In this document: piece after piece, positions 3,972 to 9,285 of the stretch
Layout: each line of letters begins with the position of its first letter
Numbering within the stretch: position 1 is the stretch's first letter
Origin: Candidatus Saccharimonadota bacterium
GTDB lineage: Bacteria > Patescibacteriota > Saccharimonadia > Saccharimonadales > UBA4665
Reading direction: 5' to 3'
Assembly: GCA_016700375.1 (NCBI GenBank)
Contig: CP065016.1
Coordinates: 630,001-662,000, forward strand
Length of the DNA: 32,000 nucleotides
Made by a program: the position numbers and the translations under genes
Notes under the pieces: generated by a model
Databases searched by the model: none
What the model saw: only the letters and a program-made list of their open reading frames with translations
Told to the model about the DNA's origin: nothing

Positions 3972-4045
3972 GAGACAAACCTACGGTTTTTCTCGTCGCG
4001 CGGGGTCGCGGAATAAATCCGCCGACTCCGGCTGCTCTTTTCCCT
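3972..4045 (-). repeat. two-hairpin leader cassette, copy 1 (23S-5S spacer, ends 6 nt before the 5S 5' end)
   Basis: Plus strand GAGACAAACCTACGGTTTTTCTC-gTCGC-...GCGGAATAAATCCGC...GGCTGCTCTTTTCCCT. It is homologous to 5552-5626, 8098-8183 and 9215-9285. Confidence 0.8.
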
Positions 4046-4154
4046 CAGTCCGAGGTGATGTCACAGTCGGTGTCGATGTCCATTACAAGTAGACGGATGT
4101 TAGAAAAGAGCTAGCAATGTTGAACAAACGTTGCTACCGGTATGGTAAAACCAC

Positions 4155-4170
4155 ACCAATAACTAGTCAA
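4155..4170 (-). other. 23S precursor processing stem, 3' strand
   Basis: accaataactagtcaa is the perfect reverse complement of ttgactagttattggt at 8302-8317. The 16-bp helix encloses the whole 23S, a typical RNase III-type stem. Confidence 0.75.
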
Positions 4171-4904
4171 TGCACTTTTTGCCTATGAACCATGCACAAA
4201 AATGCACGATTCATAGGTCGTAAAAAGTCAATGTCCCTATTAGTACGCTTCGGCTACACATGTTGCCATGCTTACACCTTGCGCCTATCAACCAGATAGT
4301 CTTTCTGGGGGATCATGGGGAAATCTAATCTTGAGGCTAGTTTCGCGCTTAATATGCTTTCAGCGCTTATCTATTCCGCACGATAGCTACTCAGCAATGC
4401 CCTTGGTAGAACAACTGATACACCAGCGGTGCGTCCGCCCCGGTCCTCTCGTACTAGGGGTAGATCCTCTCAAATTTCCTTGCGTCCACAGCGGATATAA
4501 ACCGAACTGTCTCACGACGTTCTGAACCCAGCTCACGTACCTCTTTAACCGGCGAACAGCCGGACCCTTGGGACCTGCTCCAGCCCCAGGATGAGATGAG
4601 CCGACATCGAGGTGCCAAACAGCATCGTCTATGTGAACTATTGGATGCTATAAGCCTGTTATCCCCGGCGTAACTTTTATCCGAAAGCGCTGCCGATACC
4701 ACACTCTTGTACAAATGTACTGACAGCGGAAAACTTACTCCGACTTTCGTCCCTGCTCGGCTTGTAGGCCTCACAGTCAAGCTAGCTTATGCGTATACAC
4801 TATCACTACGATTTCCATCCGTAGTTAGCTAACCTTTGAACGCCTCCGATACTCTTTAGGAGGCAACCGCCCCAGTTAAACTACCCACCAGACACGGTCC
4901 GGAA

Positions 4905-5082
4905 GCCGGAAATTGCATGCAATTTCTTCGGCTTGTGTACCAATTATCCTGTCACCTGTCACGCATGAATTAACAATTACCATGTAACAATTGAGTTCCA
5001 ATCGTTACAGGTTACATGGTCATCCAATGTGACACGTTACAGGTTACATGTGACACAACCCAAATTGTATACAATTTGCGGC
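4905..5082 (-). repeat. 23S insertion in about helix 79: GTTACA/TGTCAC module copy 1 with flanking palindromes
   Basis: The core at about 4935-5056 is homologous to 6306-6426 and 7078-7198. It is flanked by GAAATTGCATGCAATTTC (4909-4926) and CAAATTGTATACAATTTG (5061-5078). Confidence 0.85.
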
Positions 5083-5527
5083 TCCCGTAAGAACAAGATC
5101 ATAACAAGGGTGATATTTCACTGGTGGCTCCACCAAGACTAGCGTCTCAGCTTCAAAGCCTCTCACCTATACTACACATGTTATAACCCGGCTCAATGCC
5201 AAGCTGTAGTGAAGCTGCACGGGGTCTTTTCGTCCTGCTGCGGACAGACGGCATCTTTACCGTCAATGCACTTTCACCGAGCTCTTCGTTGAGACAGTAC
5301 CCATATCATTACGCCATTCGTGCGGGTCAGAACTTACCTGACAAGGAATTTCGCTACCTTAGGACGGTTATAGTTACCGCCGCCGTTCACTGGGGCTTCA
5401 GTTCGCTGCATACACAACTCCCCTTAACCTTCCAGCACTGGGCAGGCGTCAGCCCGTATACATCCACTTTCGTGTTAGCACAGACCTATGTTTTTGGTAA
5501 ACAGTTGCATGGGTTCTTTAGCTGCGG

Positions 5528-5800
5528 CCCCCTCACTCTAGCTACGCTAATGAGACAAAACCTACGGTTTTTTCTCATCGCTCCGGGCAAATGGAATACA
5601 TTTGCTCGGGCTGCTCTTTTTCCCTTCTGGGCTATAAGAACAGTTTTCGCATAGTGAGCTTTAGAGGTCAGCTTTCTAATTGATATGTCTCTAAAAATTG
5701 TTCGATTTGTCTCACTGTAAGAAGTTATAAACTTACATGCTGAGACAGGTTTTCAAAAAGAAAACTGGCTAACTCACCTGTCGTAGACAGAGTGAGGGGG
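5528..5800 (-). repeat. 23S insertion in helix 63 region (about 270 nt) containing leader cassette copy 2 (5552-5626)
   Basis: Closed by the 12-bp stem ccccctcactct (5528-5539) with agagtgaggggg (5789-5800). The interior has GAGACAAAACCTACGGTTTTTTCTCATCGC...CAAATGGAATACATTTG...GGGCTGCTCTTTTTCCCTT plus further hairpins. Confidence 0.8.
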
Positions 5801-6288
5801 CAGACCTTATCCCGAAGTTACGGTCGCTTGTTTGCCGAGTTCCTTAACGAAGAATCACTCGTACACCTTGGTCTTCTCGACCTGAGCACCTGTGTCGGTT
5901 TGCGGTACGGATGGCATGTACCACGCGTTATATTGCTTTTCTAGTCAGCACTTTCATAAGAATTCAACCTGATGGTCGTTTCATTCGTACGCATTTCTCG
6001 TACTTAGACGGATATAACCATGAATCCGCTCCTACTACTATGCCGCGCACATATAACAAATACATGCCAGTACGGGAATATTAACCCGTTGTCCATCGCC
6101 TACGCTACGCGCCTCGGCTTAGGACCGACTAACCCTGGGACGATTACCGTGGCCCAGGAAACCTTGCTCTTTCGGTGGGCAGGATTCTCACCTGCCTTAT
6201 GGTTACTCATTCCAACATTCTCACTTCCTCACGCTCCACCAAACCTCACGGTTCAACTTCAACGCTGAGAGGAACGCTCCTCTACCGA

Positions 6289-6443
6289 GCAATGCACAGC
6301 ATTGCAATTATCATGTCACAATTATCATGTCACAATGAATTACCGATTGGCGTGTAACGATTGAAGCTCAATGGTTACATGTTACAGGGTAATCCTAGGT
6401 GACATGTTACAAGTTACATGGTAATCGCGATGCCATGCATCGC
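6289..6443 (-). repeat. 23S insertion in helix 45: GTTACA/TGTCAC module copy 2 with flanking hairpins
   Basis: Core 6306-6426. Flanks are GCAATGCacaGCATTGC (6289-6305) and GCGATGCcatGCATCGC (6427-6443). Confidence 0.85.
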
Positions 6444-7057
6444 TCTCACATCTTCGGTGCTATGCTTAGCCCCGTTACATTTTCCGCGCAGGGTCTCTTG
6501 ACTAGTGAGCTGTTACGCACTCTTTAAATGAATGGCTGCTTCTAAGCCAACATCCTAGTTGTTTAAGAAACCCCACCTCGTTTCCCACTTAGCATAGACT
6601 GAGGGACCTTAGATGGTGATCTGGGCTGTTTCCCTTTTGAGCGACGAGCTTAGCCCCGCCGTTCTAACTGCTGTAGTTCCACTGATAGTATTCGTAGTTT
6701 GTCAAGGGTGGGTAATCTTGCGACCCCCAGTCCGAAACAGAGCTCTACCCCTACCAGCTACCGTACAACGCTAGCCCTAAAGCTATTTCGAGGAGAACCA
6801 GCTATCTCCAGGTTCGATTGGCATTTCACCGCTAACCACAGGTCATCCGGGCGTGTTGCAACTCGCTACGGTTCGGTCCTCCACGTCGTTTTACCGACGC
6901 TTCAACCTGCCCATGGTTAGGTCACCTGGTTTCGGGTCTATTTACTACGACTGAATGCCCTATTCAGACTCGCTTTCGCTTGGCTTACGTCATATGACTT
7001 AAGCTTGCCGTAGCAAATAACTCGTTGGATCGTTCTACAAAAAGCACGCCGTCACGA

Positions 7058-7219
7058 GCTCATCACTAATGATGAGCAATTAGCCTTTATCCTGTCACCT
7101 GTCACAATGGATTACCCATTACTGTGTAACGATTAAGGTTCAAACGTTACAAGTTACATGGTAATTCTATGTGACATGTTACAGGTCAATGGTTACATGC
7201 TCTTCACGCAGTGAAGAGC
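7058..7219 (-). repeat. 23S insertion in helix 25: GTTACA/TGTCAC module copy 3 with flanking hairpins
   Basis: Core 7078-7198. Flanks are GCTCATCActaaTGATGAGC (7058-7077) and GCTCTTCACgcaGTGAAGAGC (7199-7219). Confidence 0.85.
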
Positions 7220-7397
7220 CCGCTCCGACTCCTTGTACGCACACAATTTCAGGTTCTATTTCACTCCCCTCCCGGGGTTCTTTTAACCTTTCCCTCGCGG
7301 TACTTGTTCTCTATCGATCATGTAATATATTTAGCCTTGGAGGGTGGACCCCCCAGATTCAGTCAGGATTTCACGTGCCCCGACCTACTCGACAACC

Positions 7398-8724: not shown

Positions 8725-8793
8725 GCCAACCGCGTAGTCATTTTTGCAACACCTTCGCCTCTGATACTGCTTGACGATTGTGTAATATATATC

Positions 8794-8825
8794 ACAAAAA
8801 AATCCGCATACGCGGATTTTTGATT
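8794..8825 (-). terminator. intrinsic terminator after the tRNA-Ala/tRNA-Ile unit (bidirectional shape)
   Basis: ATCCGC-atac-GCGGAT stem flanked by an A-run and a T-run. The minus sense ends in TTTTTTT. Confidence 0.7.
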
Positions 8826-8827
8826 CT

Positions 8828-8870
8828 TGGTGGGCGATGAGGGACTCGAACCTCCGACCTCGTCATTATC
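8828..8870 (-). pseudogene. orphan exact copy of the 3' half of tRNA-Ile (anticodon G34 to CCA)
   Basis: 43/43 nt identical to 8907-8949. Identity stops exactly at the first anticodon base. Confidence 0.9.
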
Positions 8871-8906
8871 TCCTCGGGAGAAAATGATTTGTAAATCAGT
8901 TCTAGC

Positions 8907-8983
8907 TGGTGGGCGATGAGGGACTCGAACCTCCGACCTCGTCATTATCAGTGACGCGCTCTAACCAGCTGAGCTAATCGCCC
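8907..8983 (-). tRNA. tRNA-Ile (anticodon GAU), CCA encoded
   Basis: Minus sense GGGCGAT-TA-GCTC-AGCTGGTTA-GAGC-G-CGTCA-CTGATAA-TGACG-AGGTC-GGAGG-TTCGAGT-CCCTC-ATCGCCC-A-CCA folds as a canonical cloverleaf. Confidence 0.95.
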
Positions 8984-9032
8984 ATCAGCTAGAATTGATT
9001 GAATTTGTAAATTTGCTTCGCTAACGCTCAGC

Positions 9033-9071
9033 TGTCATTTGCAGTGACGCGCTCTAACCAGCTGAGCTAAT
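9033..9071 (-). pseudogene. orphan copy of the tRNA-Ile D-arm and anticodon arm (5' part), anticodon mutated to GCA
   Basis: 30/30 nt identical to 8949-8978 (9042-9071). Homology continues through the anticodon stem (CTGCAAATGACA versus CTGATAATGACG). The acceptor 5' strand has diverged and there is no T-arm. Confidence 0.85.
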
Positions 9072-9168
9072 ATTACCTCACGCCATATCGCTTTTATTTT
9101 AGTTATTCCGCGATTTGGGTTCAGTATATATTTTAGCTAACCGCTAAAATATCGCCCTAGGTTATAAA

Positions 9169-9203
9169 TGGTGGAGACGCTGTGCTTGAGGCACTGCGCC
9201 CCC
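9169..9203 (-). other. tRNA-like minihelix ending in ...TCTCCACCA
   Basis: Minus sense is GGGGGCG-CAGTGCCTCAAGCACAG-CGTCTCC-A-CCA. It forms a 7-bp acceptor-like stem (2 G-U pairs), a short hairpin, a discriminator A and CCA. There is no D arm or anticodon arm. Confidence 0.3.
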
Positions 9204-9214
9204 ATGATAGTAGT

Positions 9215-9285
9215 GAGACACCTTTCATCAGGTTTTCTCATCGCACCGCGCAAATGGAATACATTTGTTCTCGGGCTTCCCTTCC
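9215..9285 (-). repeat. two-hairpin leader cassette, copy 4 (between tRNA-Ala and the minihelix/tRNA-Ile)
   Basis: Plus strand GAGACACCTTTCATCAGGTTTTCTC-aTCGC-accgcgCAAATGGAATACATTTG-ttctcGGGCTTCCCTTCC. Confidence 0.75.

Follow-up and report, generated by a model that had tools for sequence, protein, structure and literature searches.

Why would one short sequence recur four times within a single ribosomal RNA (rRNA) locus, each time just ahead of the point where a stable RNA begins or resumes? This question is raised by a stretch of 32 kb (hereafter the window) from a Candidatus Saccharimonadota bacterium (GenBank assembly GCA_016700375.1, contig CP065016.1, positions 630,001 to 662,000), which carries on its minus strand an rRNA locus of the Saccharibacteria type. 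An initial annotation, made from the sequence alone, had pointed out a cassette of ~75 nucleotides (nt) with two hairpins, present in four copies in the sense of the rRNAs: before the 5S rRNA (copy 1), within an insertion in helix 63 (H63) of the 23S rRNA (copy 2), before the 23S rRNA (copy 3) and before a tRNA-like minihelix (copy 4). Module mapping and a covariance model bore out the four copies at these coordinates and in this orientation (Table 1). The cassettes apparently constitute a previously undescribed family of folded RNA elements of ~75 nt, which probably mark or protect the 5′ edge of stable RNAs.

Read in the rRNA sense, the cassette comprises three modules. The first is a purine box, GGGA(n)GAGCAGC, mostly conserved at ≥90% per position although it lay outside our search pattern. 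The second, hairpin B, is held by base pairs that covary (for columns 22/52, CG occurs 63 times, GC 27, AU 6 and UA 2); RNAalifold detected compensatory changes in 7 of 14 pairs. The upper part and loop of this hairpin are highly variable (UAUUC, UUYAYU, GUCACGC, GGCUUUGCC), and its frequent A-C opposition corresponds to a variable mismatch site (A-C, C-C, A-U or C-U), not to a hidden G-U pair. The GGAAUA loop initially described as conserved is so within one subfamily but not across the family. The third module is GCG followed by hairpin A: AYGRGA(n+1)CC, a loop of 3–4 nt, and GGU(n-1)GUCYCRU. Both the GCGAYG junction and the purine box are nearly invariant; the lower 8 bp of hairpin A, A-G mismatch included, are invariant and its top pairs covary. 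The stem of hairpin A had been read too short, its actual length being ~12 bp (12 bp in 147 of 225 copies and 11–13 bp in 202, the metagenomic copies counted here being those among the matches listed). Fewer A or U residues in the hairpin A runs are offset by extra C-G pairs at the top. Position 61 covaries with the first bases of the linker that follows: a U there goes with AU in 182 copies, and a C with GU, UG or CG in 13. AUUAC follows hairpin A in 47 of the 225 copies (ACC in ~21%), the full ACCA in few. Hairpin A stacks on hairpin B, the two adjoining without a single unpaired base.

Purine box, two hairpins and GCGAYG junction are indeed shared by the window copies, but copy 3 departs from the common order. 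In this permuted form, hairpin B stands upstream of the purine box, as it also does just before 23S 5′ ends in three loci retrieved by our genome and metagenome scans (which all bear L numbers; here L020, L045 and L063). A three-base junction (GAA or GCA) joining purine box and hairpin A, with no hairpin B between them, was found upstream of 23S in the window and in L020, L045, L063, L163, L184 and L201. Hairpin B is absent altogether from the first copy of L095.

The covariance model (R1) was built from 105 seed sequences, namely 102 copies from other genomes plus copies 1, 2 and 4, so that copy 3 is the only one of the four window matches fully independent of the seed. Run on the window with filters off, it returned exactly four sites, with the E values listed in Table 1, the next best match having E = 0.07. 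Simple patterns were also in excess: GGAATAMAT occurs 5 times in the window against 0.53 expected and GCTGCTCTTTTTCC (≤2 mismatches) 3 times against 0.37, and a composite cassette pattern matched three times in the window and not once in any shuffle.

Pattern scans revealed ~240 further copies in the genomes of ~90 Saccharibacteria species and in metagenomes. For the genome scan, a strict pattern without the purine box was applied to one genome per species (185,579 species) and yielded 118 loci. True cassettes accounted for 107 of them, all from Saccharibacteria, Saccharimonadales, Patescibacteria or unclassified metagenome-assembled genomes; the 11 other matches came from other phyla and lacked the purine box, ~9 chance matches having been estimated beforehand. 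Some species have 3–5 strict matches, on separate contigs. The metagenome scan used a second, differently anchored pattern and provided at least 131 copies in at least 120 loci. A 5-kb metagenome contig with rRNA genes (L125) contains four cassettes belonging to two A-run classes: a tandem pair upstream of 23S (147 and 15 nt), one in an insertion in helix 25 (H25) and one in an H63 insertion. Viral contigs scanned for the cassette pattern gave no match. Across related genomes, the base pairs of the family covary and its placement 5′ of stable RNAs is kept. The initial impression that the motif had not been described also stood: no Rfam 15 family, the self-cleaving ribozymes, riboswitches, Bacillaceae-1 and leader motifs among them, matched the cassette in the window at gathering thresholds, E-value scans of copies 1 and 2 and of a canonical copy (L075) gave only E ~1–9, at less than half the gathering score, and full-text literature searches found no description of it, although such an absence is not proof. 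We regard it as settled that the cassette is structured, under purifying selection and, among the ~186,000 species genomes scanned with the strict pattern, restricted to Saccharibacteria.

Where the copies lie provides the main clue to their role. Approximately 40% are located 5–19 nt upstream of a co-oriented gene for tRNA, transfer-messenger RNA (tmRNA), 5S or 23S. Taking both sets together, and for the metagenome set always among the matches listed, stable-RNA genes near cassettes are co-oriented in 100 cases and opposed in 7. In the genome set, a stable-RNA gene within 150 nt downstream is co-oriented in 50 cases and opposed in 3 (binomial p ~3e-12 by our own arithmetic), and tRNAs, representing at least 20 anticodons, begin 5–14 nt after GUCYC, with a mode of 8. 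The metagenome set contains 32 tRNAs, 14 23S sites and 4 5S genes in co-orientation versus 4 opposed, and the distance to the co-oriented RNA is 5–19 nt, with a median of 9. One cassette (L071) is followed by tmRNA. As a general rule, 2–17 nt separate the cassette from the terminal helix of the strongly expressed RNA unit downstream.

The window copies conform to this description. In copy 1, hairpin A is followed by UAU and the 5S 5′ end at 3965, GUCUC lying 6 nt from the 5S start; orthologues precede 5S in L098, L036, L080, L084, L152, L181, L200 and L218. Copy 3 stands 8 nt from the 23S rRNA. The 23S processing stem, which consists of an exact inverted repeat of 16 nt (2 matches versus 0 expected), lies further out, so that copy 3, placed between it and the mature 23S 5′ end, belongs to the pre-23S RNA. 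Copy 2 maps to positions 1703–1769 of the Escherichia coli 23S rRNA, inside the H63 insertion and just before the sequence re-enters the rRNA, as initially noted: it ends 2–3 nt short of the 3′ strand of the insertion's 19-bp closing stem. The fold of this insertion (5515–5815) has a z-score of -7.7, and the same H63 position is occupied in L079, L125, L158, L184, L189 and L229. Copy 4 is indeed followed, 10 nt on, by a minihelix ending in ACCA. ARAGORN did not call it as a tRNA; it stands where relatives have one (in L037 and L024 the order is tRNA-Ala, cassette, tRNA-Ile), and a similar sequence comes after the cassette in L024 (~3999–4040). This minihelix might be what is left of a tRNA, or else a small substrate for RNase P.

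This adjacency is not just a matter of missing space, since cassettes hug the downstream gene despite free spacer. In 23S-5S spacers of ~250 nt they are always beside the downstream gene, and where 215 nt separate the processing stem from 23S they likewise hug 23S. Those carried by 23S insertions (E. coli ~280, ~350–370, H25, helix 45 (H45) and H63) occupy the 3′ edge, 5–11 nt before the rRNA resumes versus 44–123 nt after it left off. In many tRNA units, sigma-70 promoters (TTGACA-17-TAnAAT) are found 22–45 nt upstream of the purine box. These promoters, together with the location of cassettes in pre-rRNA, indicate that the cassette is a 5′-leader RNA transcribed in the sense of the downstream gene. 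Protein-coding genes just after sense copies include, as assigned by Pfam, those of L14, S17, L23, L10, S14, L16, L4, S18 and RpoC, and also S3, SSB, ClpC-like and HrcA-like genes, which were identified by eye from translations only. In ribosomal-protein operons the copies sit between cistrons, often just after sigma-70 promoters, and in rpsF-ssb-rpsR there is one in each intercistronic gap. The placement directly 5′ of stable-RNA ends that was first proposed holds and extends to tRNAs, tmRNA and 23S insertions, but it is neither specific to rRNA nor universal.

A second trait common to the family is an internal length register. In the purine box the A-run (n5) is one residue shorter than that of the hairpin A 5′ strand and one longer than the U-run of the 3′ strand, with four length classes (2/3/1, 3/4/2, 4/5/3 and 5/6/4). 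This rule is obeyed in 95 of 104 copies of the genome set and in 122–126 of 131 of the metagenome set, which is independent of it (Spearman 0.95–0.97). It holds in all hairpin B classes and in contigs that mix classes (the window, L125); lineage structure is, therefore, not the explanation. In effect, the purine box repeats the 5′ strand of hairpin A in diverged, direct form (GRGA(n)R) and is kept in register with the 3′ strand of that hairpin. However, a helix between the box and that 3′ strand was rejected as a thermodynamic switch, because the constrained fold reaches -13.2 kcal/mol versus -24.5 kcal/mol for the unconstrained one. Duplexes between box and 3′ strand score only ~-1 to -4.5 kcal/mol, and matched ones are no better than permuted ones (z +0.8, versus -23.8 for hairpin A itself), so that the length covariation is not explained by energy alone. 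This pairing needs G-U pairs that are present on the sense strand only. We read the register as pointing to a tertiary contact in the sense RNA, in which the purine strand would lie along hairpin A, or else to a factor-assisted switch. Counting G-U versus A-C in the main helices to choose a strand was uninformative (12 versus 10).

Several other potential contents of the cassette were considered and discarded. A pseudoknot between loop B and the purine box (GGAA/UUCC) shows no covariation, and loop B is not conserved family-wide. A small open reading frame (ORF) beginning AUGAGAAAA is contradicted by copies 1 and 3, which read GACGAG, and by type-2 copies, which lack the AUG of hairpin B. No acceptable -35/-10 pair for an internal sigma-70 promoter exists in the cassette on either strand, the real promoters being upstream. 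The GAUGAG...GUC that might recall a hammerhead ribozyme reads GCGAUGAG, with the wrong C3/U4 equivalents, no GAAA after stem II and no Rfam match.

The cassette has multiplied by duplicative insertion. Direct duplications flank 6 of the 118 copies of the genome scan versus 3 of 630 controls (exact over 23–41 nt, or 51–62 nt with mismatches). In the second set, flanking repeats of at least 14 nt occur, among the matches listed, in 11 of 120 copies versus 9 of 655 controls; five of these 11 repeats are 20–42 nt long and adjoin the cassette. Overall, the duplications span 16–62 nt, donor flanks included, and the long forms (20–62 nt) are found on ~5–9% of copies. The inserted unit consists of the cassette with 6–30 nt of foreign 5′ flank and 7–23 nt of foreign 3′ flank, a size that resembles a released tRNA leader and hints at an RNA template, although we take this only as a lead. 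The duplication in L039 ends in GGGAAAAG, a microhomology with the purine box that suggests template switching. In three antisense cases (folD, tpiA and dnaX) the duplication starts at the ATG, thereby regenerating an intact gene. We found no terminal inverted repeats and no fixed-length target duplication, nor any transposase-like ORF between or near paired copies, whose translations were viewed without a profile-library search. The initial annotation had offered, as its alternative, a small mobile element preferring rRNA spacers; mobility was supported by the flanking duplications, the two orientations at protein genes and the lineage-specific choice of 23S helices, but the supposed preference proved too narrow.

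How can a mobile sequence be so closely tied to the beginnings of stable RNAs? Our tentative preference, to which we would grant somewhat less than an even chance, is that the cassette is a cis-acting 5′-boundary RNA module that guards or processes RNA and has proliferated. It would fold as soon as it is transcribed, so that upstream RNA could not invade the downstream helix at its 5′ strand while this strand is still unpaired. It may also block 5′-to-3′ exonucleolytic decay begun at upstream cuts, and it would leave a short single-stranded window for the final endonuclease; with tRNA and tmRNA this would be RNase P, and with 5S and 23S it would be some other enzyme. A two-hairpin 3′ cap would remain on the RNA released upstream. 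Copying of the cassette with short flanks to new sites would make bystanders of some copies. We infer this guard or processing role, the enzymes and the third-strand contact; what the comparisons show directly is the family with its fold, its transcription in the sense direction, its rules of position and orientation, and its insertion footprints. Old orthologous copies have been kept, as illustrated by the permuted three-base junction at the 23S 5′ end in seven genomes, window included. The shared 5′-end maturation signal initially envisaged is partly supported, and broadened: it is in agreement with this position and with transcription in the sense direction, but not with the absence of the cassette before 16S nor with the lack of a conserved cleavage motif in the linker.

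A number of observations weigh against such a boundary module. No cassette precedes 16S (0 of 4 loci) or, in the window, tRNA-Ala or RNase P RNA, and cassettes occur patchily at the 23S and 5S 5′ ends that we incidentally sampled (11 of 20 and 9 of 13, respectively). The linker after hairpin A has no conserved single-stranded or cleavage motif beyond a weak UA. Of the copies linked to tRNAs, about half come after a promoter of their own, so that no RNA upstream would have to be set apart, and RNase P works unaided. Approximately 13% of copies are antisense between co-directional genes, and in ~20% hairpin A ends next to a convergent gene's stop codon or to the 3′ end of a tRNA, places at which the opposite strand looks like a terminator. 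As the duplications attest movement, the bias in position and orientation could reflect where insertions are tolerated. Finally, all loci were found via the cassette itself, which biases the frequencies, and gene calls relied on crude ORF heuristics. Metagenome-assembled genomes may, in addition, hold assembly errors. An extended version of the boundary proposal would see in the cassette one modular device serving as a general 5′-boundary element for nearly all abundant RNA classes, its purine strand docked in register on the 12-bp hairpin in a triplex- or switch-like manner and new copies being seeded by the leader RNA or gene; we consider this rather unlikely.

The same facts might be accounted for without a boundary function if the cassette were mainly a selfish or neutral dispersed repeat, similar to repetitive extragenic palindromic (REP) sequences or miniature inverted-repeat transposable elements (MITEs), which lacks a dedicated transposase and enters highly transcribed DNA by templated insertion. 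Its placement rules would then simply mean that only short leaders tolerate insertion, and only in the non-terminating orientation. The duplications above controls in both sets and the foreign flanks of the inserted units speak for it, as do the head-to-head inverted cassette pair in L086, the patchy occupation of orthologous sites, the differences among lineages in the 23S helix occupied (once antisense) and the unbiased protein-gene contexts (~13–15 antisense versus ~10–14 sense). The antisense strand is, moreover, the top terminator-like site of the scanned region. However, a neutral repeat would hardly keep its sequence and register in nearly all copies, old orthologues included, or hug the downstream gene with 150–200 nt of spacer free. 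It also shows none of the terminal inverted repeats, fixed target duplication or transposase near paired copies of such elements, and we roughly estimate that its enrichment upstream of RNA genes would exceed 10-fold. We thus hold this explanation to be doubtful. Another idea, in our opinion quite improbable, makes the cassette a cis-regulatory RNA, which would change conformation or be bound by a protein or a small molecule and so tie the output of the whole translation apparatus (tRNA, rRNA, tmRNA, ribosomal proteins and RpoC) to one signal, e.g., via leader removal or stability control. It would fit the genes found downstream, essentially the translation machinery, and the fact that the purine box and GCGAYG hardly vary. 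Two partners of matching length are available to the 3′ strand of hairpin A, one being the 5′ strand of that hairpin and the other the purine box, and eight fixed lower pairs below freely covarying top ones are a pattern typical of switching sequences. Nevertheless, the alternative helix is weak, its constrained fold falling short of the minimum-free-energy fold by 11 kcal/mol, nothing recognisable as an expression platform comes after the cassette, the would-be aptamer arm, hairpin B, is highly variable and sometimes absent, and many translation genes lack a cassette.

The strand opposite to the one we favour might instead be functional, as a unidirectional intrinsic terminator or 3′-end stabiliser for convergent genes, the copies at RNA genes being by-products. 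A terminator scan placed the plus strand of copy 2 on top (12-bp stem with 6 GC pairs, tail CTGCTCTTTT) and did not list copies 1, 3 and 4; plus-strand folds are slightly more stable, and in 16–22 copies a convergent stop codon lies 1–18 nt from the hairpin A end, while the copies of L081, L211, L233 and L235 are 7–14 nt past a convergent tRNA 3′ end. Nonetheless, the U-tract is interrupted and begins after GC, the genome has canonical terminators elsewhere (after 5S and after tRNA-Ile) and, at 40–45% of copies, there is nothing for the antisense strand to terminate. Furthermore, the candidate G-U pairs between box and 3′ strand become A-C on the other strand, and the overall G-U and A-C counts favour neither strand. 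This possibility appears, then, very improbable. We give even less credence to a processive antitermination or anti-pausing RNA that would modify RNA polymerase and be re-supplied before each processed unit. The put RNA of phage HK022 is cis-acting, ~70 nt long and made of two hairpins. The cassette resembles it in having two abutting hairpins (~70 nt) just past promoters, recurring along rRNA and ribosomal-protein operons, and it likewise recalls boxB-boxA-boxC in being a repeated element of rRNA leaders and spacers with hairpins beside a GCUCUUU-like core. Yet a 76-nt tRNA has no obvious need for antitermination, which does not predict close adjacency to the downstream 5′ end, and 16S has no cassette before it. 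As a boxA/nut site for NusB/NusE the cassette was rejected, since its core UGCUCUUUU(U)CC is on the plus strand, the rRNAs being on the minus strand, and no copy lies upstream of 16S. A boxA-like AGUUCUUUAAGAAC in rRNA sense already occurs upstream of 23S, in a small palindrome between the processing stem and copy 3 (8256–8243, minus).

Comparison with known repeats and processing signals points to partial similarities only. The REP/BIME elements of enterobacteria and the ERIC, BOX and RUP repeats are reported to stabilise upstream mRNA 3′ ends or attenuate transcription. Like them, the cassette is short, imperfectly palindromic, dispersed, co-transcribed and present in both orientations and in inverted pairs. 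In contrast with REP/BIME, it is asymmetric (a purine box and two unlike hairpins), conserved across a class-level lineage and not in one species, and tied in one orientation to the 5′ side of stable-RNA genes, and its flanking duplications are long and variable. No RAYT-like gene was seen near the copies. When considered as a REP/RAYT or IS200/IS605 element, it was found to have dissimilar hairpins A and B and to be flanked by duplications, and the ORFs near paired copies lack transposase-like starts. Its unlike ends (purine box versus hairpin A) and its duplications of non-fixed length do not fit a MITE or DNA-transposon derivative. The Correia/NEMIS elements of Neisseria are small co-transcribed non-coding repeats that alter processing via RNase III and can sit within operons; they have terminal inverted repeats and a TA target duplication, whereas the cassette has neither and keeps a fixed spacing to downstream RNA 5′ ends.

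Among processing signals, tRNA punctuation and the t-elements of plant mitochondria use a fold at the border of transcripts to set the cut site, one structure serving many transcripts. The cassette is, likewise, a folded element at the border of RNA units. However, RNase P or RNase Z there acts on tRNAs or their mimics, whereas the cassette precedes real tRNAs; ARAGORN called no tRNA at any window copy, and only the 12-bp length of hairpin A and the ACC that sometimes follows recall a minihelix. In Cas6-cut CRISPR repeats, a hairpin guides the cut at its 3′ base and leaves a handle of ~8 nt on the downstream RNA. This provides an analogy for a hairpin-guided endonuclease, but the cassette has no array, spacers or cas genes and its distance to the RNA ranges between 5 and 19 nt. 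As a riboswitch, it would offer two length-matched partners for one strand, with an energetically poor alternative helix and no identified expression platform. With the 23S intervening sequences (helices 25 and 45, RNase III) the window 23S rRNA shares short ORF-less insertions, at the classical and at other sites; unlike them, the cassette forms only the 3′-most part of insertions and is mostly outside rRNA. Among Saccharibacteria rRNA insertions, 64 of 66 are short and uncharacterised (PMC11270868).

Some further observations concern RNAs associated with cassettes in related genomes. A small GNA-triloop hairpin (GGC-GAA-GCC; GC-GUA-GC in copy 2, window 5540–5547) often follows hairpin A after AUNA where no RNA gene adjoins (e.g., L008, L038, L054, L057, L093, L137, L141 and L232); it seems to stand in for the downstream helix. 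A structured RNA of ~270 nt with a ~28-bp terminal stem and a fold z-score of -7.4 begins 5–7 nt after the cassette, upstream of rsmH (L086, 4895–5165 minus; also L089, L129 and L153). It has no Rfam match and, in L086 and L089, is neither RNase P RNA nor 6S RNA according to Rfam. In L002 and L110, sequences resembling cobalamin riboswitches precede the cassette, but Rfam did not bear them out.

The rRNA locus of the window has several additional peculiarities (Table 1). Three protein genes (9458–11946), a Fic/DOC-domain gene, an unknown ORF and a GNAT acetyltransferase gene on the other strand, unlink 16S from tRNA-Ala, tRNA-Ile, 23S and 5S. Aligned to the E. coli 23S rRNA, the six insertions of 23S map to ~270–298, 346–370, 545 (H25), 1172 (H45), 1703–1769 (H63) and 2212 (helix 79, H79). 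Those in H79, H45 and H25 contain an unrelated repeat family of ~130 nt (79% mean column identity; window 4925–5075, 6295–6440 and 7060–7215, minus), rich in GTAACA/GTGACA and partly palindromic, and a GAGTTAAGAG-type repeat is common to the insertion at E. coli ~346–370 (window 7417–7461) and the 23S 5′ leader (8328–8358). The tRNA-Ile gene is flanked downstream by an exact copy of its 3′ half and upstream by a 95% copy of its 5′ part (8828–8870 and 9034–9071), with a stray GGGCGAT further upstream, at about 9150; it looks as if an insertion with a tRNA copy of its own had split a tRNA gene. A canonical terminator follows it at ~8822–8797. The last 22 nt of 5S recur as an exact inverted copy ~200 nt past the 5S terminator (3631–3652 plus versus 3853–3874 minus), and the close relative L098 has an analogous inverted 5S-end copy (~870–890) followed by a degenerate antisense cassette at 986–1080. 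Outside the rRNA locus, the RNase P RNA begins ~8 nt after a TATAAT box (27719–27740) and has neither leader nor cassette; a LOOT RNA motif (RF03000, 67.4 bits) is located downstream of it, at 29540–29661. The sequence TAnAAT-N-ACCCCTGTT recurs at stable-RNA promoters of relatives (L028, L033, L046, L088 and L116) and may represent a lineage-specific discriminator.

Table 1. Cassette copies and associated RNA features of the window (all on the minus strand; window coordinates).
Feature	Position	Strand	Basis or remark
Copy 1, 23S-5S spacer	4044-3969	minus	covariance-model match 3962-4047, 75.1 bits, E 9.6e-17
Copy 1, parts	purine box 4044-4031; hairpin B 4032-3998 (loop UUUAU); hairpin A 3996-3969	minus	fold
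Copy 2, 23S helix-63 insertion	5624-5550	minus	covariance-model match, 86.5 bits, E 1.5e-19
Copy 2, parts	purine box 5624-5610; hairpin B 5611-5580 (loop UAUUC); hairpin A 5578-5550	minus	
Copy 3, permuted, 8 nt upstream of 23S 5′ end	8183-8096	minus	covariance-model match 8088-8145, 49.1 bits, E 2.1e-10
Copy 3, parts	hairpin B 8183-8153; purine box 8142-8129; GC-GAA-GC mini-hairpin 8133-8123; hairpin A 8122-8096	minus	
Copy 4, directly after tRNA-Ala	9285-9214	minus	covariance-model match, 58.8 bits, E 8.7e-13
Copy 4, parts	degenerate purine box 9285-9275; hairpin B 9276-9243; hairpin A 9241-9214	minus	
Minihelix ending in ACCA (9 bp, mismatch, 4 bp), 10 nt after copy 4	9203-9169	minus	fold
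16S rRNA	13607-12137	minus	
tRNA-Ala	9383-9307	minus	
tRNA-Ile	8983-8907	minus	
23S rRNA, 3871 nt, six insertions; host of copy 2, downstream partner of copy 3	8089-4219	minus	Rfam RF02541
5S rRNA, downstream partner of copy 1	3965-3849	minus	Rfam RF00001, 82.5 bits
23S processing stem, 5′ strand	8302-8317	minus	exact 16-nt inverted repeat with 4155-4170
23S processing stem, 3′ strand	4155-4170	minus	exact 16-nt inverted repeat with 8302-8317
H63 insertion closing stem (19 bp), 5′ strand	5782-5800	minus	fold
H63 insertion closing stem (19 bp), 3′ strand	5528-5546	minus	fold; pairs with 5800-5782

Should the extended version of the boundary proposal hold, Saccharibacteria would own a bacterial equivalent of 'punctuation' or exonuclease-resistant RNAs and, at the same time, a functional RNA module that propagates itself. 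One conserved element connects tRNA, tmRNA, 5S, 23S, 23S insertions and ribosomal-protein operons, and it may explain the start points of fragmented 23S pieces. Its three-way length covariation constitutes a clean prediction for structural work, either a third-strand contact or a switch, and the insertion footprints offer a rare view of a functional RNA module spreading in a streamlined genome without an obvious transposase. The covariance model can, in practice, mark leaders and gene boundaries in Saccharibacteria metagenome-assembled genomes. The maturation and balance of stable RNAs in the reduced, epibiotic Saccharibacteria and in other bacteria of the Candidate Phyla Radiation would thus become a testable question.

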